64,000 nucleotides of DNA, from assembly GCA_039807095.1 (NCBI GenBank), contig JBDHQM010000003.1, positions 24,620 to 88,619 of the forward strand, in the 5' to 3' direction. Below, piece after piece: positions 8,538-47,587 of the stretch; position 1 is the stretch's first letter; each line of letters begins with the position of its first letter. The position numbers and the translations under genes were made by a program. The notes under the pieces are model-generated. The model was not told the DNA's origin and ran no database searches. It saw only the letters and a list, made by a program, of their open reading frames with translations. Source of the DNA: Kiritimatiellia bacterium (GTDB lineage: Bacteria; Verrucomicrobiota; Kiritimatiellia; CAIVKH01).

Positions 8538-10388
8538 ATGTCTGGCAGAGAGGATGTGCGGATGGCGTCGAAAAACTTCCAACGCTTGGAAATTCATTCG
8601 CGGAAGACTTCCAAGGCTTGGAACTATTTCCTCAAAAACTTCCAAGGGTTGGAACTTTTGCCTCGCGCGGCTTCCAAGGGTTGGAAATTTTTTGTTTTGG
8701 CGCTGTTTTTGGCGGTTGCGGCGCGGGGGGCGAGCCCGTGGCGCGAGGTGGTATCGTTTTCGATCACGACAAACATTTCGCACGATAGAAGTGTTTACGT
8801 TGTCGGCAATCATCCTGACCTCGGGAACTGGAATCCGACGGCGGCGGTGCAGCTCGCATATTCGGGGGGCGATTCGTGGACGGGGAACGTCGCGGTGCAG
8901 GCGGGGACGGTGCTGGAATATCGCTATATTTCACGGCTCGATGCGTCGAATCAGTATTGCGTGGTGACGAATGTAGAGTGGCTCGGCGACGGGAATCTCA
9001 CGAATGTGATTTCCGCGCAGCCTGACGCGCCGTATGCGGGAAAGACGCTGCTTTATTTGTCGTCGTGGACGAATGCGTTCGTGCGGTATTGGGCGGATGC
9101 GACGAATCTCGTTTCGATGGAGATGGAGCGGGTGGGCGAGGGGCGGGTGCTTGGCGAGTATTTGTATCGCGCGGCGGGGTTCGGCGAGGCGGGCGAGGCG
9201 GTGCAGTTCGACTGCTTCGGTTTTTTGAGCGAGACGCAGTATTGGGACAAGGCGCCGTATACGGGATTCGGGACGAACGATTATTCCACGCCGCTCGATG
9301 TGTTCTATTTGCAGGACGGCGACATCTTCAATTATACGCCGCCCCCCGCGCCGGCTGCATCGTCCGTGACGTCGCTGGTCATCGTGTCGTCCTACACGAA
9401 TATTCCGGGGCGCAACGTGCGGATTTATCGCCCGCGCGGGTATTCCGACAACACGTGGAAACGGTATCCGGTGATGTACGCGCACGATGGGCAGTACTTT
9501 GCCGGAGGGTGGGGCGGCTGGCAGACTTTGGATCGGGAAATCAGTCAGGGGCGGATGCGTGAGGCGATTGTGGTGGCGGTGGATACGCCGGGCGCGGCGT
9601 ACCGGTGTCGCGAGTTGGTGCCGCCGGGCGATGAGATTGATTTGGTGGACTATTGCGGGTCGCCGAATGTGCAGGGCATTGGCGACCAGTATGCCGACTA
9701 TTTGATTCACGATGTGAAGGCGTATGTGGACGCGAATTACCGGACGTTGCCGGACAGGGAAAACACGGGCGTAATCGGCTCCTCGCTCGGCGGGTTGATT
9801 TCGTGCTGGATGGCGATGCGGACCAACGCGTTCGGGTGGGCGGGGGTGATGTCGGCGGCGTTCTGGACGGCGCCGAACTTCATGGACTGGATTGAGACGA
9901 ACGATTCGCGCGTCGCGCGGTTGTATTACGACTTCGGCACCAGCGAGGATGACTCGATTTGGAATGTCTTGTGGTTGCTCCGCTATTATCTGCTTGAGGA
10001 CGGGTACGCGGAGAATGGCGATCTGCTGACCCGCATCGGCTGCGACCACACCCATGCGGAGTGGGCGTGGAAAGCGCGGCTGCCCAGCGCGATGCGATAT
10101 TTGCTGAACCCGTGGGACGAGCCAAATCTGCTCGCGCAAGCCGAGTATCCACCCGCCCTCACGTGGGAAGGGGGGGGCGGACCGACTTCGCTCGTCCATC
10201 GCACGTTGTTCGGCTATCAGTATCGCCTCGAAACCGCGACGAACATGCTGGACGGCGTTTGGGCGACATCCGCGGTGCCCGCGATTGTTGAAGCGCGGCC
10301 CTGGTCCGAACTCGTCTGGCCGCTCACCAACGCGTTGCCTCCCGACCCGACCGTCTTTCTCCGCGTGAGCGCCGAGCCCGTGCCCTGA
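8538..10388 (+). CDS. Secreted CBM20 (starch-binding)-esterase fusion (esterase D/putative esterase family alpha/beta hydrolase)
   Basis: VYVVGNHPDLGNWNP...GTVLEYRYI is a CBM20 signature. RIYRPRGY...YPVMYAHDGQ and the nucleophile elbow GSSLGG are esterase-family features. The 5' end is uncertain: the first ~50 codons translate the palindrome array, so the start is probably later (in-frame TTG at 8658 or downstream). Confidence 0.8.
   Translation: MSGREDVRMASKNFQRLEIHSRKTSKAWNYFLKNFQGLELLPRAASKGWKFFVLALFLAVAARGASPWREVVSFSITTNISHDRSVYVVGNHPDLGNWNPTAAVQLAYSGGDSWTGNVAVQAGTVLEYRYISRLDASNQYCVVTNVEWLGDGNLTNVISAQPDAPYAGKTLLYLSSWTNAFVRYWADATNLVSMEMERVGEGRVLGEYLYRAAGFGEAGEAVQFDCFGFLSETQYWDKAPYTGFGTNDYSTPLDVFYLQDGDIFNYTPPPAPAASSVTSLVIVSSYTNIPGRNVRIYRPRGYSDNTWKRYPVMYAHDGQYFAGGWGGWQTLDREISQGRMREAIVVAVDTPGAAYRCRELVPPGDEIDLVDYCGSPNVQGIGDQYADYLIHDVKAYVDANYRTLPDRENTGVIGSSLGGLISCWMAMRTNAFGWAGVMSAAFWTAPNFMDWIETNDSRVARLYYDFGTSEDDSIWNVLWLLRYYLLEDGYAENGDLLTRIGCDHTHAEWAWKARLPSAMRYLLNPWDEPNLLAQAEYPPALTWEGGGGPTSLVHRTLFGYQYRLETATNMLDGVWATSAVPAIVEARPWSELVWPLTNALPPDPTVFLRVSAEPVP
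8577..8686. repeat. Array of four phased TTCCAA-N3-TTGGAA palindromes
   Basis: Copies at 8577-8591, 8609-8623, 8640-8654 and 8672-8686 (spacing 32/31/32 nt). The same motif and spacing occur at 22256-22302 and 46738-46784. Confidence 0.85.
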
Positions 10389-22217: not shown

Positions 22218-22255
22218 GCGCACGCTCCGACGAAAACTCTCCAGCGCGGACAAAC

Positions 22256-22302
22256 TTCCAATCCTTGGAAGTCGTTTCGTGCGCGACTTCCAAGCGTTGG
22301 AA
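22256..22302. repeat. Two phased TTCCAA-N3-TTGGAA palindromes
   Basis: ACTTCCAAtccTTGGAAGT at 22256-22270 and ACTTCCAAgcgTTGGAAGT at 22288-22302 (32-nt spacing), 39 nt upstream of the phosphoesterase start. Confidence 0.85.
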
Positions 22303-22335
22303 GTTCGACAGACGTTCGGGCGGCGGATGTGCGAT

Positions 22336-41075: not shown

Positions 41076-44000
41076 TTCGACGCTTCCCCGCGTTTGAGAT
41101 GGTCCAACAATGGCTGGCCGATCCTTTTTGCCCACTCTTCGAACGCTTTTTCGTCCTTGAATGGGCCCGTTCTGCCGAAAATAGCGACGTAGTACGGATC
41201 TTTATTTGTGTCGTATCCACCCTCGAAGGGCTTCCACGCCTTGCTCGCTCCATTCAACGCGTTTTCCGAATTTTTTCCGGCGAGCAGTTCCACATATTTG
41301 AACGACACTTCCGGAACAAACGGCGGCACGGGCGTGTATTCAGTAAGAAAGATGTGGACATATTCGCCCAGCAGTGTTGCGGCATCTTCCGATTTGAGGA
41401 ATAGCGCACACTTAAGATCGTCACCCTTGCCTTGTGCGTTGAGCGATTCTACGGGCTTGCCTGCTGCATTCGCGAAGAGGTGTTTGAGCCACGTTGCGAA
41501 GAGGCGACGATACTTGAAGGTCGAGGCGTGGAAATCGAGAATCACCGGGCCGGTGAGAATTGGCGAGGAGCCTGAGAGGCGGACAGTTGTTGTTTTCTCA
41601 ACCGGGATGTCAATGCTCAGGTTCTGAGGCGGCGTGTTGGCATGTGCTGTAAGTGCATCCTTCAGCGTATCAAAGTGTGGGACGGGTTGTTTGAGCAGTT
41701 CATCCACTTTGGCTTTGAATTCTTCGAACCAGTGCTCGCCCCAGTTGGCAAGCGGAAGGAGGTTGTCGGCGGCGATTTGCGCGCGTGCGGCATCCGGCTG
41801 TCCGGCGATGGTTGCGTCAATGATGCGTTGGCGAATCTTCGACTCGTCGAGATGAGTGGGGTCGAATACTTCGGCATCTTTCGGAAGTTCGTCCAGCAAG
41901 GGGCGAGGCTCTGCTCCGAGTACTTTCCGGAAGTAGTACTTTGCCGGATTATCGAAGTAGCGGATCAGCTCATCCAGATCAACGTTGACGGTTGACGTCG
42001 GCGTCTTGGGTGCGGGTGCTTGCGCCGCCGGCTCGGATGGAACGGCAAGGGCTTTGGCCGTGTTGCAATTGCTCTCGGAGTAGGAGAAGAGTTTGGATTT
42101 GGTGTCGAAATAGTCGGGGTGGTACGGAGCGAGGCGGTGTTCGAAGCGACGGACCTCTGGTTGGAAATTGTGCTTGAGGTATTCCAGCAGCTCGCGCACG
42201 GCCACGGATTCCGGCATGAGCGTGTTGTCTTCTTCAGAGAACGCGGGATAGAGGATCAGCAACCGCTCTCGCGCGTTGAGGAGGACTTCGAGAAAGGCCT
42301 GGCGGTCTTCGATTGCGAGGGAACGGTCGCCCATTTTACGTGCATCACGGAGAAGATCGTATGCGGGGCGTTTTTCCGAGCGGGGGAAGAGTCCGTCGCC
42401 CATGCCGAGGAGTGCCTGGACGTGGCGGGGCGTACTACTGCCCGGGCGGAGCGAGGTGAAGATGACGGCGTTGCGGTTGAGGTCTGTGCCACCGGTGAGA
42501 TCGCCGAGGTGGCCGGTGAGAAATTCGCGGATCACTGATAGCGGAAGTTTTTCTTCGCCAAAATCTGCCGCCTTAGCGCTTGTTGCCAGCAGGCGGATAG
42601 CGCTCTTTAGAATTGCGATATCGCGATAGGTTTCGTTGTCGCTGAGGAAAAAATCGTCCACAAGCGCGTTGAGATGTTCGACCCAGTTCGCCACCGAATG
42701 TTGGCCCTGGCTGAAGCTCGCGAACTCGGTCAGCTTGCTGTAGAAGTGGGCGAGATAGCCGAGACGCACGGCTTCGCCGCCTTCGACGGCATCGCACGGA
42801 ACGATCTCAAGTTTCGGAGCGTCGTCCGCGAAATCGGTTCCCATCGCGTAGCCTACGAAAAGCCGGTCGAGCCCATAGCCCCAGGTCGTTTCCTCACCAA
42901 ATGTAGCGTCTGAAACCCGTTTGCGGTGCTCTGGATCCCGGCCCCAGCGAACGCCCCCACGGTTGAGCCAAACTGCGGCATCGTCCACTTCTTCGGCTTC
43001 TAGGCCGAATTGCTTCGCGATGGCGGGATAACGCAAAAGTTCAAGCAATTCGGGCGCAGTGAAGCGACTGTCCGCGAGATTGAGCAGTGTGCGGAATGCG
43101 TTGGACGCCAGACTCTCTCCAGCGGATACGCGGTCCGCTATGATGAATGGAATTGTTTTCGGGCCATTCGGATTCACGGCCGAAAAGACCGCTTCGATAT
43201 ACGGCGCATAGACGTTGAGGTCCGGTGTCTGAACCTGAATATGGCGCGGCTGGAGGCCTTCGATGGTATTGAAACATTCGAGGAGCTGGTCACGCAGAAT
43301 TTCCACCTCACGCATTTTTCCGTGGCAGAGGTGGAGTTGAATGGAGTTGTCGGGCTGTGCAACTTCGGTAGCGGGCGAGGTATCGCACGCTACAATAGAT
43401 TGCTGGAGCTTCGCCAGCAGCGATGAGCCGTCAGGGGTGATGAAAATATCGTTGAGTTGGCCGCCCGAAAGGTCAAGCGCGGCGGCGACGCTGTCGCGGC
43501 TGCCGCGAGCATAGGCATCGAGGAGCGGATGCTTGAGATCGAGCAGTTCGCCGGAATCGTCCGGCAATTCGTGGAATGCGTCCTGCCGGATTTTGCTTTT
43601 CAACGATTCGCGATCGAACCAATCGGTCTCCGACGGGTTGAATAAATAGAAGTCAACGGGAAGGATATTGCCTAGGTGGTGGAAGAATGTCAGGTGCACC
43701 GGCGGGAGCATGGAGGGTGCGAAGACGAAGATGCGGCGGTAGGTGTTCTGGATGCCGCAATTCGCGAGATCGTTCTGCATCCGGCGATACGCGGCGAGAT
43801 ACGTTTTGTCGCGCAGTCCGTCGGTCAGCATCCGCCAGAGTTCAGGTTCCCACGCGAGCGATTCGTTGCCCTCGACCGCCGTGTGTTTTCCGTTTTCCCA
43901 GTCGAGCATCATTTGCGGGCGATAGGAAATATACTGATTCATCAGCGCGGCAAGGCGTCCCGCGAGTTTGAAGCATTTGCGCGGATCGCGCTCGTCTTTC

Positions 44001-44395
44001 GTCGTTATGTAGCGCTCGATGGGAGCAAAAACGGGAGGAAGTTCTGGTGTGCGCAGAATGTTGTAGATCCGCCAGCGCATACTCTTTACGGAGAATGGAT
44101 GCTGCTCCGGGTCGGGCGTGCCGCCGCCGGGATGATCCATACGGTAGAGCCAATCGTTGACAAAAAGGCTGAGCAGCGGGAAGTCGCAATCGGCGAGAAC
44201 ATTCGGGGCGGCATCCCGTTCGCGGTCGAAAAGGAAATACTGCTGGAGCCATGCCTGCTGGGTCCGGCTTGGAAGGACGATGCAATCGCGCCTCGCGAAA
44301 ATAGCATCAACGGACGACCGGTTCGCGTAAAGCTTGTCGAACAGGTTGCCCGCCAACTTCTCGAGATTGTTTCCCCACGTGATACTAAGTGCCAT
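41072..44395 (-). CDS. recC: Exodeoxyribonuclease V gamma subunit
   Basis: 1107 aa, first gene of the recC-recB-recD set. N-terminal region (IVLPSRTQQAWLQQYF...) and overall length are typical of RecC. Confidence 0.85.
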   Translation of the reverse strand: MALSITWGNNLEKLAGNLFDKLYANRSSVDAIFARRDCIVLPSRTQQAWLQQYFLFDRERDAAPNVLADCDFPLLSLFVNDWLYRMDHPGGGTPDPEQHPFSVKSMRWRIYNILRTPELPPVFAPIERYITTKDERDPRKCFKLAGRLAALMNQYISYRPQMMLDWENGKHTAVEGNESLAWEPELWRMLTDGLRDKTYLAAYRRMQNDLANCGIQNTYRRIFVFAPSMLPPVHLTFFHHLGNILPVDFYLFNPSETDWFDRESLKSKIRQDAFHELPDDSGELLDLKHPLLDAYARGSRDSVAAALDLSGGQLNDIFITPDGSSLLAKLQQSIVACDTSPATEVAQPDNSIQLHLCHGKMREVEILRDQLLECFNTIEGLQPRHIQVQTPDLNVYAPYIEAVFSAVNPNGPKTIPFIIADRVSAGESLASNAFRTLLNLADSRFTAPELLELLRYPAIAKQFGLEAEEVDDAAVWLNRGGVRWGRDPEHRKRVSDATFGEETTWGYGLDRLFVGYAMGTDFADDAPKLEIVPCDAVEGGEAVRLGYLAHFYSKLTEFASFSQGQHSVANWVEHLNALVDDFFLSDNETYRDIAILKSAIRLLATSAKAADFGEEKLPLSVIREFLTGHLGDLTGGTDLNRNAVIFTSLRPGSSTPRHVQALLGMGDGLFPRSEKRPAYDLLRDARKMGDRSLAIEDRQAFLEVLLNARERLLILYPAFSEEDNTLMPESVAVRELLEYLKHNFQPEVRRFEHRLAPYHPDYFDTKSKLFSYSESNCNTAKALAVPSEPAAQAPAPKTPTSTVNVDLDELIRYFDNPAKYYFRKVLGAEPRPLLDELPKDAEVFDPTHLDESKIRQRIIDATIAGQPDAARAQIAADNLLPLANWGEHWFEEFKAKVDELLKQPVPHFDTLKDALTAHANTPPQNLSIDIPVEKTTTVRLSGSSPILTGPVILDFHASTFKYRRLFATWLKHLFANAAGKPVESLNAQGKGDDLKCALFLKSEDAATLLGEYVHIFLTEYTPVPPFVPEVSFKYVELLAGKNSENALNGASKAWKPFEGGYDTNKDPYYVAIFGRTGPFKDEKAFEEWAKRIGQPLLDHLKRGEASK

Positions 44396-44554
44396 TACCC
44401 GATATCAATACCAGAACTCCCTTTCCGCTTCGAGCCGGGATTGTGTCATAAGCGCGAAAATTACGGATGCGAACGCTCAACGCATCGAGGTGTAGCGGGC
44501 CGTGTTCACCCGTGTGGCGAGTTCGTGACGTGAGGGGTGCTGACGGTCCCGCCC

Positions 44555-44575
44555 CCGTCCACCTTGTGTGGACGG
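44555..44575. repeat. REP-like hairpin CCGTCCAC-cttgt-GTGGACGG
   Basis: 8-bp stem 14 nt beyond the stop of the HUH gene. The minus-strand loop reads ACAAG, so it is inverted relative to the hairpins in the 45.35-45.8 kb array. Confidence 0.55.
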
Positions 44576-44588
44576 AGCGGAAGTGGAA

Positions 44589-45326
44589 TCAGCCGCGGAC
44601 GGCTTTCATACTATATTCGCTGAATGTGCCGACATAAAACGTGTCCTTCCAGAATCCAGCCATACCGGCCGCGGCCGCTGTTTTTGCCTGGAGCTCCCTT
44701 GCAAGCGACTCCGGGTTTTTTGCTGGATCCGCCTTTGCGGCCACATGCAGATGGTCCGGCATAACGGCACATTTTGCTACAAAGGGTAGCTTGCAAGCAT
44801 CAGAAACTCTTCGAGCGATCTGGTCGCTCATTCGAGAGCGGCTGTCGGTAACCAAAACGATGTGCAAATTATACCAATATCGCCCGCTGTTTGTTTCAAA
44901 CGGCTGCGCGAGATCAATGTCAGGTTGTGAGAAAGTGTGCTGTTTCAGCGCATCGCGATAGCGCTCGTCGGCAAGGTCTGCATGTGCCAACTGGTTTCGT
45001 ATATATGCTTCGACGGTTGCCCTTGTGTTGTCACCGACTGAACGAAGCGAAACTTTCCGCGAAAAATTGGCGACGAGCTTCGCGGAGCGAATTGAGTGCT
45101 GTAGGCGCCCTTTGAGCACGCGCGTGATTTCAATAGGGGCGCTATGCGGATTTGCGCTTACGACAAGTTGATAGGATGTGGGCTGGATGCGCTGTTCAAG
45201 GATGTTTAGGCCGTCCCGCTTCCACTCGGCGACTGGTAGTCTGATATCCGTTGGCAGTGAGGTTCCGGCGCTTGGCCACGCTGTCCAACTGTAGCGTAAA
45301 TGAAATGCGTGAGGTGAGCTTTTCAT
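44589..45326 (-). CDS. IS200/Y1 (HUH) transposase-like protein with two tandem domains; candidate REP-associated tyrosine transposase (RAYT)
   Basis: Start at ATG 45326. Residues ~150-245 (YNLHIVLVT...MPDHLHVAAKADP...FWKDTFYVGTFSEYSMKAV) keep the HUH and Tyr. Residues ~8-112 (FHLRYSWTAW...SYQLVVSANP...RVLKGRLQ...SLRSVGDNTRATVEAYIRNQ) follow the same layout without HUH or Tyr. Confidence 0.65.
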   Translation of the reverse strand: MKSSPHAFHLRYSWTAWPSAGTSLPTDIRLPVAEWKRDGLNILEQRIQPTSYQLVVSANPHSAPIEITRVLKGRLQHSIRSAKLVANFSRKVSLRSVGDNTRATVEAYIRNQLAHADLADERYRDALKQHTFSQPDIDLAQPFETNSGRYWYNLHIVLVTDSRSRMSDQIARRVSDACKLPFVAKCAVMPDHLHVAAKADPAKNPESLARELQAKTAAAAGMAGFWKDTFYVGTFSEYSMKAVRG

Positions 45327-45349
45327 GTGGCGAGTGAACAGCTTCTTCA

Positions 45350-45805
45350 CCTGCCGGGCAAGCCGGCAGGGGCCGGTGATTGGAGGGTTGTGATGTAGCT
45401 TGTGACCTTGTTCACCCACGGGACAAGCCCGTGGGGGTCGTGTGGTGTCCGGTTGGCTGTGGCGACTAGCTCTCCGGGCAAGCCGGCAGGGGCCGGTGAT
45501 TGGAGGGTTGTGATGTAGCCTGTGACCTTGTTCACCCACGGGACAAGCCCGTGGGGGTCGTGTGGCGTCGGTGCGGGCTGTGGCGACTAGCTCTCTTCGC
45601 AAGCCGGCAGGGGCCGGAGGTTGGAAGGTTGTGAAGTAGCTTGTGACCTTGTTCACCCACGGGACAAGCCCGTGGGGGTAGTGTGGCGTCGGTGCGGGCT
45701 GTGGCGACTAGCTCTCCTCGCAAGCCGGCAGGGGCCGGTGATTGTAGAGTCGTGATGTAGCTTGTGGCCTTGTTCATCTGCGGAGTAAGCCCGTGGCGTG
45801 AGGGG
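45350..45805. repeat. Tandem array, about 3.7 copies of a 120-121-bp unit carrying two hairpins
   Basis: The unit landmark gcaagccggcagg recurs at 45358, 45478, 45599 and 45720. Each unit has GCCGGC-aggg-GCCGGt and CCACGGG-acaag-CCCGTGG (first at 45416-45434). The last unit is degenerate. Confidence 0.9.
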
Positions 45806-45892
45806 TGGACTGTTTATGGTGTAGTGCTGGCGCACGGAAGATTGCGATTTCGGGGGAAGCGTGGATACTGACGGGCGGTTTTTGAACGGAGA

Positions 45893-46672
45893 GTGGTGAT
45901 GCGCGAAAGGCCGGTAACATTTCAGGTGAGTGGGCAGCAGGTAGTGGGGATGGTGCATATTCCGGAGGGGGTGGGGCCGTTTCCGGTGGTGATTTTTTTG
46001 CACGGATTTACGGGGAGCAAGGTGGAGGCGCACCGGTTGTTTGTGGGGCAGGCGCGGGATTTGGCGAGGGCGGGTATTGCGTCGCTGCGGTTTGATTTTC
46101 GCGGGAATGGGGACAGCGAGGGGGAATTTCGCGAGATGACGATGGCGCGGAATGCGGAGGATGCGGCGGCGGCGCTGCAGTTTGTGTTGCAGCGCGATGA
46201 TTTTGATCCGGCGCGAATTGGCGTGCTCGGAATGAGTATGGGCGGGATGGTGGCGGCGTTTGCGCTGGCGGATCACCCGGAGTTCAAGGCGGGTGTGCTG
46301 TGGAATGCGGTGGCGAAGCCGCGCGCGCGGCGCGATGCGCGGTTGTCGCCGGAGGCGATGGCTGAATTGGGGAACCCGACTGTGCTGGATAACGGCGGGT
46401 GGGGCGTGGGCGTGCAGTTTTTTCAGGAGCTGGGCGATCTCGATCCGTTGGCGGCGATTTGCAAGACGAAGGCATCGGTCCTCGTGGTCGGCGCGACGGC
46501 GGATGAGGCGGTTCCGTTCGTTGAGGCGGAAGCGTTCCGCGCGACGCTGACAGAGGCGGGCGTTGAGAATGCGCTGTACGCTGTGCAGGGCGCGGGTCAC
46601 ACGTTCGCCTCGCTGGCGTGGAAGGCGGAGGTGTTCCGCGAGACGACGGCGTGGTTCAAAAAGTGGCTGTGA
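45893..46672 (+). CDS. Alpha/beta hydrolase
   Basis: VVIFLHGFTGSK, nucleophile elbow GMSMGG, late GAGHTF His motif. Start could be ATG 45899. Confidence 0.8.
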   Translation: MVMRERPVTFQVSGQQVVGMVHIPEGVGPFPVVIFLHGFTGSKVEAHRLFVGQARDLARAGIASLRFDFRGNGDSEGEFREMTMARNAEDAAAALQFVLQRDDFDPARIGVLGMSMGGMVAAFALADHPEFKAGVLWNAVAKPRARRDARLSPEAMAELGNPTVLDNGGWGVGVQFFQELGDLDPLAAICKTKASVLVVGATADEAVPFVEAEAFRATLTEAGVENALYAVQGAGHTFASLAWKAEVFRETTAWFKKWL

Positions 46673-46737
46673 GCGGGGCACAATTTGCTTCGTCTGCCAT
46701 CGTCCGCTGTTTCTTTCTCTGCATCGCGTTGCTATAC

Positions 46738-46784
46738 TTCCAACGTTTGGAAGTTTATTGAAAATGCACTTCCAAGGATTGGAA
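46738..46784. repeat. Two phased TTCCAA-N3-TTGGAA palindromes
   Basis: ACTTCCAAcgtTTGGAAGT at 46738-46752 and ACTTCCAAggaTTGGAAaa at 46770-46784 (32-nt spacing), 75 nt upstream of the ABC ATPase start. Confidence 0.85.
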
Positions 46785-46858
46785 AATTTTTGAACGCGGC
46801 GTGCGATGCGCGGTCTATCAACGCATTCGGCGCGTGAGGAGGGCGCCCGGAGCGACGT

Positions 46859-47587
46859 ATGATTAAAGTAAGCAACTTGGTGAAGAACTTCGGCCGTCGC
46901 GAGGCGGTGCGCGATGTGTCGTTTGAGGTGAAGCCGGGCGAGGTGCTCGGTTTCCTCGGGCCTAACGGCGCGGGGAAGACCACGACGATGCGCATGGTGA
47001 CGGGGTATCTGGCGCCCACGTCGGGGCGGGCGTGGATTCAGGGGTTCGATGTGACGGAGAAGCCGGTTGAGGCGCGACGCCATCTCGGATATCTGCCGGA
47101 AAATGCGCCGTCGTATGGCGATATGACGGTGGAGGAGTTTCTCGCGTTTGCTGCGGCGATGCGGGGCTATCGCGGGAAAGAGGCGCGCCAGCGGGTCCAT
47201 GATACGCTGGAGAAGTGCATTCTCACGACAGTGAGGAATCAGCCGATTGAGACGTTGTCGAAGGGGTATCGCCAGCGCACGTGTTTTGCGCAGGCGATTT
47301 TGCACGATCCGCCGGTTTTGATTCTGGATGAGCCGACGGAGGGGCTGGACCCGAATCAGAAATTTGTTGTGCGGAATATGATTCGCGAGATGGCGAAGAA
47401 CAAAGTGATTGTGTTCTCCACGCACATTCTCGAGGAGGTCGAGGCGATTTGCACGAGGGCGATCATTATCAGTGCGGGGCAGATTGTGGCAGACAGCACG
47501 CCTGCTGAGTTGCGAAAGCAGGGTTCGCTGGATCAGGTGTTCCGCTGGCTGACGACGTCAGCGGATGTCGGAGGTAGCGCGCGATGA
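46859..47587 (+). CDS. ABC transporter ATP-binding protein (ABC-2/GldA-like)
   Basis: GPNGAGKTT Walker A, LSKGYRQR signature variant, LILDEPTEGLD Walker B. GAGGAGGG RBS. Confidence 0.9.
   Translation: MIKVSNLVKNFGRREAVRDVSFEVKPGEVLGFLGPNGAGKTTTMRMVTGYLAPTSGRAWIQGFDVTEKPVEARRHLGYLPENAPSYGDMTVEEFLAFAAAMRGYRGKEARQRVHDTLEKCILTTVRNQPIETLSKGYRQRTCFAQAILHDPPVLILDEPTEGLDPNQKFVVRNMIREMAKNKVIVFSTHILEEVEAICTRAIIISAGQIVADSTPAELRKQGSLDQVFRWLTTSADVGGSAR

Follow-up and report, generated by a model that had tools for sequence, protein, structure and literature searches.

A putative single-chain TnpA pseudo-dimer among inverted RCRAG-loop hairpin repeats in a Kiritimatiellia genome and its relatives

Introduction

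Bacterial transposases of the HUH (Y1) type are found in insertion sequences (ISs) of the IS200/IS605 group and, as RAYT or TnpAREP proteins, next to repetitive extragenic palindromes (REPs) in units called REPtrons. Here, we analyze a locus that resembles both. It lies in a 64,000-nt stretch of a Kiritimatiellia bacterium (GenBank assembly GCA_039807095.1, contig JBDHQM010000003.1, positions 24,620 to 88,619 of the forward strand), which we call the window. At this locus a gene for a 245-aa protein with two Y1/HUH domains is bordered by inverted hairpin repeats.

IS608 TnpA is an obligate dimer with two active sites, each of which combines the HUH motif of one monomer with the other's Y127, a residue of helix alphaD (PMC3597680, PMC3479197). 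An engineered "trans-only" heterodimer, H64A + Y127F, cleaves DNA (He et al. 2013, PMC3597680). For the monomeric TnpAREP of Escherichia coli religation within the same site has been proposed, and how a single HUH site performs strand transfer is a question that was left open (PMC3479197). Class 3 TnpAY1 proteins of Planctomycetes and Acidobacteria, which have atypical flanking hairpins, have been described as an intermediate between IS and REPtron (PMC6006769).

An earlier account of the window, made from the letters alone (the sequence-only reading), saw a RAYT-like gene in which an inactive and an active Y1 domain are fused. We arrive at a related interpretation with a different division of labor. 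The locus is probably REPtron-like: its protein would be a single-chain TnpA pseudo-dimer with one active site that acts on RCRAG-loop hairpins of single-stranded DNA (ssDNA), and the 121-bp tandem array next to the gene would have arisen from its substrate by local amplification. The arrangement recurs across Planctomycetes, Verrucomicrobia and their relatives (the PVC group). In our literature search no published account of a Y1/HUH transposase with tandem domains or a single-chain layout came up, nor one of RAYTs with such an architecture in the PVC group; the sequence-only reading, too, had noted that such a fusion is not known to have been described. The sole match for "two HUH domains" concerned separate virus proteins.

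Results

The protein contains two Y1/IS200-like domains, as the sequence-only reading had it. As a whole it scores 43.2 bits against Pfam Y1_Tnp (PF01797; cutoff 23), and each half matches the profile when run separately (N half, E=4e-4; C half, E=4e-6, 27.4 bits). The N half spans profile positions 37-121 of 121 and reaches the end of the profile, where the Tyr motif lies, whereas the C half spans positions 6-114 and ends short of it. Aligned to each other with hhalign, the two halves match weakly (probability 75%, E=2.7e-5).

Profiles of the two halves, built from 15 homologues each, were aligned to PDB sequences. The N-half profile aligns to full-length TnpA of ISDra2 (E=2.3e-6) and IS608 (E=1.6e-5). 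In these alignments EAY108IRNQ112 is matched with QY127IENQ131 of IS608 and with Y132 of ISDra2, the residue named in the title of PDB entry 2xo6 ("Y132F mutant"). The positions of IS608 H64 and H66 are occupied by a variable residue and by Q53. P60 of the N-domain is aligned with P73, a residue of the IS608 dimer interface, which is indirect support for an intramolecular arrangement of the TnpA-dimer type. For the C half, the profile matches two IS200 transposases of Sulfolobus, 2f4f (residues 5-119, E=7e-13) and 2ec2 (E=3e-12). Its PDH192LH194 lies on PDHIH of both proteins, and the chain ends where they continue into the Tyr helix.

An AlphaFold2 (AF2) model, computed from a 60-sequence alignment, forms a single confident body (pLDDT 94.6, pTM 0.89). 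In the model both domains follow the order beta-alpha-beta-beta-alpha-beta, Y108 sits on a helix formed by residues 102-111, and residues 121-129 make up a linker helix. The top PDB hits of the model in Foldseek are 2ec2, 2f4f, 2vic and 2xm3 (IS200/IS605 TnpA), and the E. coli RAYT 4er8 ranks 27th. The NCBIfam equivalog model for IS200/IS605 TnpA (NF033573) gives 46.1 bits, below its cutoff of 55.

The catalytic motifs are distributed over the two domains. Across 200 full-length members of the family, some of them representatives at ≤50% identity, Y108 is conserved in 199 and Q112 in 198. The histidines of the C-domain are conserved in 192 of 194 (H192) and 190 of 193 (H194) non-gap sequences. 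The first His position of the N-domain is variable across the family, and the second is Q in 158 members and H in 6. None of the 200 members has a Y...Q motif in the C-terminal tail. Because the N-domain keeps the Tyr helix, while the C-domain keeps the HUH and ends before the Tyr motif, the two together should build a single composite active site. The reciprocal hybrid site would be dead on both sides, with Q53 in place of the second His and a C-domain that lacks the Tyr motif. With the invariant H192, H194, Y108 and Q112 the protein is a putative HUH endonuclease, which would cleave ssDNA in a metal-dependent way through a 5'-phosphotyrosine.

This layout departs from the sequence-only reading in one essential point. 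That reading was right to give the H-L-H (PDHLHV) to the C-domain, where H192 and H194 fall on PDHIH of 2f4f and 2ec2, and to let the N-domain lose its HUH (Q53 at the second His). However, it saw no Tyr in the SVG segment of the N-domain and sought the catalytic Tyr in FYVGT of the C-domain; the catalytic-type Tyr is Y108 in EAYIRNQ, and the N-domain keeps its Tyr helix with Y108 and Q112. The idea of a single-chain pseudo-dimer is supported, but the domains are complementary and not "inactive + active".

Alternatively, the C-domain may be a self-contained, active Y1 nuclease that uses Y231 (in FYVGT) or Y238 as its Tyr, with the N-domain serving as a dead scaffold or DNA-binding module. Both tyrosines are near-invariant and the C half outscores the N half on Y1 profiles. 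But the counterpart of Y231 is a conserved, non-catalytic Tyr/Phe in the "W..sYf" strand of TnpAs, that of Y238 is a Val in 2f4f, and the chain stops before the position of the Tyr motif. With such a nuclease there would also be no explanation for a "dead" domain in which Y108 and Q112 are invariant. Both residues align exactly to Y127 and Q131 of IS608. We regard an autonomous C-domain as decidedly improbable and proceed with the composite site.

The substrate candidates of the composite site are hairpins. Five perfect hairpins with an 8-bp stem and a 5-nt RCRAG loop (or its complement) occur in the 64 kb, compared to 0.03 expected from shuffles, and all of them are at the locus (table 1). 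The four hairpins upstream run antisense to the gene, and the one downstream runs in the sense direction. The family 5' flank of the downstream hairpin, ACTTCCGCT, begins directly after the stop codon, GGGG follows 3' of the stem, and the hairpin agrees with the family consensus unit given below.

The upstream hairpins belong to a tandem array. Tandem Repeats Finder (TRF) places it at 45358-45776, with a period of 121, 3.5 copies and 91% matches; a repeat search over 45335-45817 yields four units with 83, 100, 93 and 77% identity to the reference copy. Both results fit the roughly 3.7 tandem copies of 120-121 bp first noticed 5' of the gene. The 121-bp unit consists of two sub-units, CCCACGGG-ACAAG-CCCGTGGG and CCTGCCGG-GCAAG-CCGGCAGG. 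The second hairpin is intact solely in the gene-adjacent unit, and its 5' arm has decayed in the other copies. A further hairpin, GCCGGC-AGGG-GCCGG, had been reported for every unit. It does exist as the predicted fold of the internal units, but the comparison shows it to be a by-product of the decay of the CCTGCCGG-GCAAG-CCGGCAGG hairpin. We also considered a CRISPR-like array and rejected it: the repetition, at 91% identity, takes in entire units together with their "spacers".

On the gene's opposite side, beyond the downstream hairpin, a 55-nt stretch (44485-44539) aligns to 45750-45807 with a local alignment score of 35 (shuffles: 16.7 +/- 2.4), and both end in CGTGAGGGGTG. Because this stretch repeats the last array unit, the repeat-bearing locus covers 44485-45817, most of the 1.5-kb gap between recC and an alpha/beta-hydrolase gene.

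The association between gene and hairpins is conserved. A scan of one genome per species gave 253 relatives, and we analyzed the best 80 loci, nearly all of which come from metagenome-assembled genomes (MAGs) of Planctomycetota, Kiritimatiellia, Lentisphaerae and Verrucomicrobiota. The top match (64% identity) is in a Kiritimatiellia MAG. The family is compact: among 1.84 billion representatives there are 403 clusters (50% identity) at E≤1e-3 and 237 at 1e-10, and most full-length hits cover both domains. JGI labels family members "RayT" through COG transfer.

Perfect RCRAG-loop hairpins lie ≤400 bp from the gene in 64 of the 80 loci. Their density is high near the gene, with 225 hairpins in 59.6 kb versus 71 in 908 kb further away. 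Upstream hairpins are mostly antisense (82 versus 34 sense) and downstream hairpins mostly sense (79 versus 30 antisense); for the nearest hairpin the ratios are 45:10 (upstream, antisense) and 46:13 (downstream, sense). Thus the inverted orientation of same-loop hairpins around the gene, which the sequence-only reading had pointed out for the window, is also conserved in related loci. When pairing is not required, the pattern CC-N6-RCRAG-N6-GG has 263 sites near the genes. The arms are fully complementary in 210 of these, with 46 distinct inner stems: the hairpin structure is conserved while the sequence varies. The locus-weighted consensus is cAAaCTt..tCt-CCtGCCGG-RCRAG-CCGGCaGG-GG. Its flanks are conserved too, and the window hairpins fit it, flanks included.

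Arrays with a period of about 68-72 nt are common in related loci. The closest homologue on a long contig (L001, 63% identity) shows the arrangement of the window, with antisense hairpins upstream and sense hairpins downstream in a 67-bp array. In L001-L010 the 21-mer CCTGCCGG-CTTGC-CCGGCAGG is found about 25-45 nt upstream of the start codon, the position that it has in the window. The identical gene-proximal 21-mer is also present in L011 and L012, and the proteins of L001-L012 are only 56-64% identical to that of the window (56-63% in L001-L010). Paralogues in one MAG bear different stems (L019/L054, L052/L056, L070/L078, L065/L083 and L048/L074), which suggests cognate pairs of protein and hairpin. 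No conserved neighbor gene accompanies the pair, as each family of neighboring genes is found in at most 5 of the 80 loci; hence the unit is the gene plus its hairpins. The earlier assignment to RAYTs holds for the arrangement of gene and hairpins, which is RAYT-like and conserved, but not for the motifs, which are of the class-1 IS200 type (DHLH, Y---Q) and not class-2 YIxxNP.

Hairpins also occur without the gene. Clusters are located 2-10 kb from the gene in L011, L021, L026, L030, L032, L038 and L071. In L030 three antisense and then three sense hairpins follow each other at 70-nt spacing from -5.5 to -5.1 kb, with no gene between them. A pattern scan of metagenomes with CCYRCSGGRCRAGCCSGYRGGG gave 80 loci among the matches listed, in which we searched for the gene by tblastn with 60 family queries. 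Among these listed matches, 4 of the 80 loci contain a family gene and 76 do not; in 17 of those without it the hairpins are flanked on either side by at least 1.2 kb. Many are "- - + +" clusters (antisense-antisense-sense-sense) with about 70-nt spacing. The arms are complementary in 101 of 114 matches, compared to 12.5% expected from the degenerate pattern, and the hairpins carry the family 5' flank (G)AACTnCTTCA. Gene-less inverted clusters, in the same arrangement that brackets the gene, resemble REPs and bacterial interspersed mosaic elements (BIMEs) in their behavior. The sequence-only reading had named hairpins unique to the locus, with no dispersed copies in the genome, as a finding that would refute it. 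Inside the 64-kb window the hairpins are indeed confined to the locus, but at the family level dispersed clusters without the gene are common.

These clusters bear on a non-catalytic role, in which the hairpins are RNA or DNA regulatory elements (mRNA stabilizers, attenuators or protein-binding sites) and the protein is a domesticated hairpin-binding regulator of its own or neighboring genes. One hairpin lies 24-44 nt upstream of the ATG and another begins directly behind the stop codon; both positions would suit such a role and are conserved in related loci. REPs are also known to influence mRNA stability (PMC3333891). However, the HUH, Tyr and Gln residues of catalysis are essentially invariant and gene-less clusters lie far from any family gene. 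Within 44200-46000 no sigma-70 promoters or intrinsic terminators were detected, so the hairpins are not canonical terminators, and 43500-47000 has no Rfam match at E≤1. We hold a purely regulatory locus to be very improbable.

The same clusters, together with the layout of the locus, bear on a third alternative: an autonomous IS200/IS605-type element, whose gene and hairpins move as a unit, with the hairpins as left and right ends and the array as an amplified end. By Table 1 of PMC6006769 the motifs are IS200 class-1-like (DHLH, Y---Q). The neighborhoods differ in almost all of the 80 related loci, some MAGs contain two loci, and in the window a direct repeat of about 55 nt bounds gene and array. 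But the flanking hairpins are inverted, unlike the same-strand ends of IS200/IS605 elements, and each MAG has one or two copies, with paralogues that have diverged and bear different stems. The loci of P0010 and P0015 are syntenic (amylase - gene - UDG - AhpC). Gene-less hairpin clusters far exceed gene-bearing ones among the matches listed. Finally, one active site cannot perform the coordinated two-end excision of IS608 (PMC3597680). An autonomous IS is therefore unlikely, and we retain the REPtron-like locus. The coordinates of its features are listed in table 1.

Table 1. Coordinates of the features at and around the locus (positions in the window).
Feature	Position	Strand	Basis or remark
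Family gene, 245 aa, tandem Y1/HUH protein	44589..45326	minus	ATG start, stop codon included; list of open reading frames (ORFs)
N-domain, residues 1-130	44937-45326	minus	Pfam Y1_Tnp, profile-to-PDB alignments, AF2, Foldseek
C-domain, residues 131-245	44589-44936	minus	Pfam Y1_Tnp, profile-to-PDB alignments, AF2, Foldseek
Y108-I-R-N-Q112 codons, N-domain helix with catalytic-type Tyr and Gln	44991..45005	minus	Codons hand-checked; alignment to IS608/ISDra2
D191-H192-L193-H194 codons, C-domain HUH	44745..44756	minus	Aligned to PDHIH of 2f4f, 2ec2
Downstream "sense" hairpin CCGTCCAC-CTTGT-GTGGACGG	44555..44575	minus	On the gene strand CCGTCCAC-ACAAG-GTGGACGG
Gene-proximal hairpin CCTGCCGG-GCAAG-CCGGCAGG	45350..45370	plus	Antisense to gene, 24-44 nt upstream of ATG
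CCCACGGG-ACAAG-CCCGTGGG hairpins	45415-45435, 45535-45555, 45656-45676	plus	Antisense to gene
Tandem array, four 120-121-bp units, fourth degenerate	45335..45817	plus	Repeat search, TRF; hairpins all antisense to gene
Degenerate partial repeat unit, outer edge on recC side	44485..44539	plus	Direct repeat of last array unit 45750-45807
recC, Exonuc_V_gamma + RecC_C, 1107 aa	41072-44395	minus	193 bp downstream of family gene, same strand
Alpha/beta-hydrolase gene	45893-46672		Other edge of the locus gap

The extent of the gene needs a comment. Public record P0001 contains a version of 355 aa, whose start is set at GTG 45656, so that 110 codons of the tandem repeat are translated with it. Because the nearest homologues, with 245-246 aa, align end to end with the 245-aa version (coverage 100%), the longer version is an over-extension, the repeat artefact that it had been taken for from the start. 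Homologues of 290-390 aa are also among the hits, and over-extension through hairpin arrays may recur as an annotation artefact of the family.

The neighboring genes do not characterize the family. Since other loci show no link to recC, the adjacency to it in the window is probably coincidental; even so, a putative ssDNA nuclease locus beside recBCD genes is of interest. In L002-L010 (P0010 and P0015, two related lineages) the neighbors are kept, with an alpha-amylase upstream and an AhpC/redoxin downstream. In these loci the stop of the gene overlaps a called UDG-family start by 14 nt. The UDG start is probably mis-called, because a sense RCAAG hairpin sits within the called ORF (L009, 6759-6779). 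Adjacency to UDG (in the P0010 and P0015 loci) and to recC were both rejected as family traits, as there is no partner gene across the 80 loci. PADLOC gave no hit, so the gene is not a known defence component, and matches in PHROGs are to generic "transposase" families only.

Some related loci show variants of the hairpins and their arrangement. A second class of loops, rich in A/T (ATAAA, ATGAA, TTCAT, GTAAA), is found on CCTGCCGG-type stems ≤400 bp from the gene in L035, L040, L051, L052, L075 and L087. These hairpins are sometimes opposite the RCRAG/CTYGY ones across the gene; L051, for example, has CTTGY upstream and ATAAA downstream. In L012 (CALGMT010000081.1) the same block of three sense and then two antisense hairpins occurs on both sides of the gene, from about -285 to +275. 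Its gene looks as if it were placed at one junction of a longer periodic array. The window shows a reduced version of this arrangement, with the array, the gene, one sense hairpin and one degenerate antisense unit. In the window units GTAGC is found about 20 nt upstream, and it is not conserved across loci.

Two other sets of repeats in the window are separate from the locus. Near-perfect palindromes like ACTTCCAAGGCTTGGAA, CTTCCA-N3/4-TGGAAG, form a dispersed family of their own at 8571-8692, 22250-22308 and 46732-46790. They are intergenic and come in pairs or triplets about 31 nt apart (TRF, 8571-8664), and one pair is about 0.9 kb from the locus. They would be another REP-like element or a protein-binding site. 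The intergenic region 1515-1949 contains a 30-bp tandem repeat (1553-1641) and a duplication of about 250-285 bp, each with GGCGGG-CAAG-CCCGCC hairpins (6-bp stem, 4-nt loop). In their G+C-rich stem and CAAG loop they are similar to the RCRAG hairpins, from which they differ in loop length, stem base and flanks. These hairpins may be a decayed relative of the RCRAG hairpins or unrelated to them.

Discussion

We propose that the locus consists of a stand-alone HUH (Y1) nuclease or transposase gene surrounded by arrays of the hairpin repeats that belong to it. In our model, two TnpA domains of the IS200/IS605 type are joined in one chain as a pseudo-dimer, in which one of the two hybrid sites would have survived: the N-domain would contribute the Tyr helix (Y108, Q112) and the C-domain the metal-binding HUH (H192, H194). 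Its substrate is presumably an ssDNA hairpin with an 8-bp stem that starts with CC and ends with GG, a 5-nt RCRAG loop and the 5' flank AACTnCTTCA. The protein would bind this hairpin, nick nearby through a 5'-phosphotyrosine intermediate and rejoin the strand in the same site. In this way it would generate, amplify and occasionally disperse hairpin units, and the 121-bp array would be the product of local amplification.

A wider claim can be built on this model. The family may represent a natural "trans-only" TnpA: an IS200-type dimer that was fused, lost one hybrid site by complementary decay, was domesticated independently of the proteobacterial RAYTs, and drives a so far unrecognized REP/BIME-like family of RCRAG hairpins across the PVC superphylum. 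We consider the arguments for and against this wider claim to be evenly balanced.

Several observations weigh against our model. On its own, the N half scores 20.9 bits against Y1_Tnp, slightly under the gathering cutoff of 23 bits. We infer, and do not see directly, that Y108 is placed next to H192 and H194 in three dimensions. The two C-domain tyrosines are conserved in 185 of 192 (Y231) and 187 of 193 (Y238) non-gap sequences and may have a role. The trans-only site of the engineered IS608 heterodimer cleaved DNA and did not rejoin it (PMC3597680); therefore strand transfer in our protein needs another route, for example religation in the same site. BLAST and a relaxed hairpin scan find no copies of the hairpin or of the 121-bp unit outside 44485-45817 within the 64-kb window. 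Furthermore, the metagenome contigs with hairpins are not assignable to genomes that carry the gene, and the counts from them refer to the matches listed.

If our model is true, an IS200-type transposase has taken a second and independent path to the REPtron lifestyle, and the "domestication" of HUH transposases by way of hairpin repeats is convergent. Annotation of Planctomycetota, Verrucomicrobiota and Kiritimatiellia, in which RCRAG arrays currently yield over-extended gene calls such as the 355-aa version, would also gain a new repeat family, characterized by an 8-bp CC...GG stem, an RCRAG loop and an AACTnCTTCA flank. The protein would be nature's version of the engineered H64A/Y127F heterodimer, a stable monomeric one-site enzyme with which single-HUH strand transfer could be studied. 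Moreover, paralogues of the same genome with different cognate stems suggest that hairpin specificity is programmable, which is of interest for HUH-tags and ssDNA-targeting tools.

How does the family compare with known systems? With IS200/IS605 TnpA (IS608, ISDra2; PDB 2a6m, 2vjv, 2xm3) it shares the Y1/HUH fold and sequence in both domains, the class-1 motifs DH[LVI]H and Y---Q, the alignment of P60 to the interface residue P73, and short DNA hairpins. However, IS200/IS605 TnpA is a single domain of about 130-155 aa that contains both HUH and Y---Q and forms a homodimer. The family protein splits them between the C-domain (HUH) and the N-domain (Y---Q): two diverged units are fused in one 245-aa chain, with a predicted one active site instead of two. 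The family hairpins are inverted, whereas those of the ISs are subterminal and on the same strand. While the ISs occur in several near-identical copies, often with tnpB, the family has one or two diverged loci per MAG and no tnpB. We therefore do not class it as a canonical IS200/IS605 TnpA or IS.

Quentin et al. (2018; PMC6006769) defined class 3 TnpAY1, which is similar in its occurrence in Planctomycetes, in a Tyr motif that ends in Q, in its REPtron-like setting and in its atypical secondary structures. But class 3 proteins are single-domain, with a median of 178 aa, NHVH and Y----Q motifs and a CnGA foot, whereas the family has 245-270 aa, two domains, DHLH, Y---Q and RCRAG loops. We rejected membership in class 3 on length and motifs. 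In the survey of Quentin et al., proteins longer than expected were taken for fusions or annotation errors and removed (PMC6006769), and this removal may explain why the family was missed.

In function the locus looks like the RAYT/TnpAREP REPtron (E. coli, 4er8; PMC3333891, PMC3479197), but the protein does not belong to the RAYT/TnpAREP family in its present definition. In both cases a stand-alone Y1 gene, present once or twice per genome, is bordered by variable numbers of inverted hairpin repeats, and the same hairpins, in our case at the family level, are found elsewhere as gene-less inverted clusters. Local amplification into arrays and a single active site per functional unit, which is predicted for the family, are common to both as well. 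Unlike the family, TnpAREP consists of one domain, works as a monomer and has the Tyr in cis, and class 2, to which it belongs, has YIxxNP (PMC6006769) where the family has the class-1 type Y-I-x-x-Q. GTAG- and CGTC-tagged REPs (PMC3733652) differ from the family hairpins, whose consensus has neither GTAG nor CGTC at the foot of the stem; instead of tags there are the RCRAG loop, the CC...GG stem base and the AACTnCTTCA 5' flank. The family also differs from RAYTs in its concentration in Planctomycetota, Verrucomicrobiota, Kiritimatiellia and Lentisphaerae. Its single site would have come about through fusion and complementary decay. In layout this site would match that of the engineered H64A + Y127F heterodimer: one hybrid site, with the HUH from one unit and the Tyr from the other.

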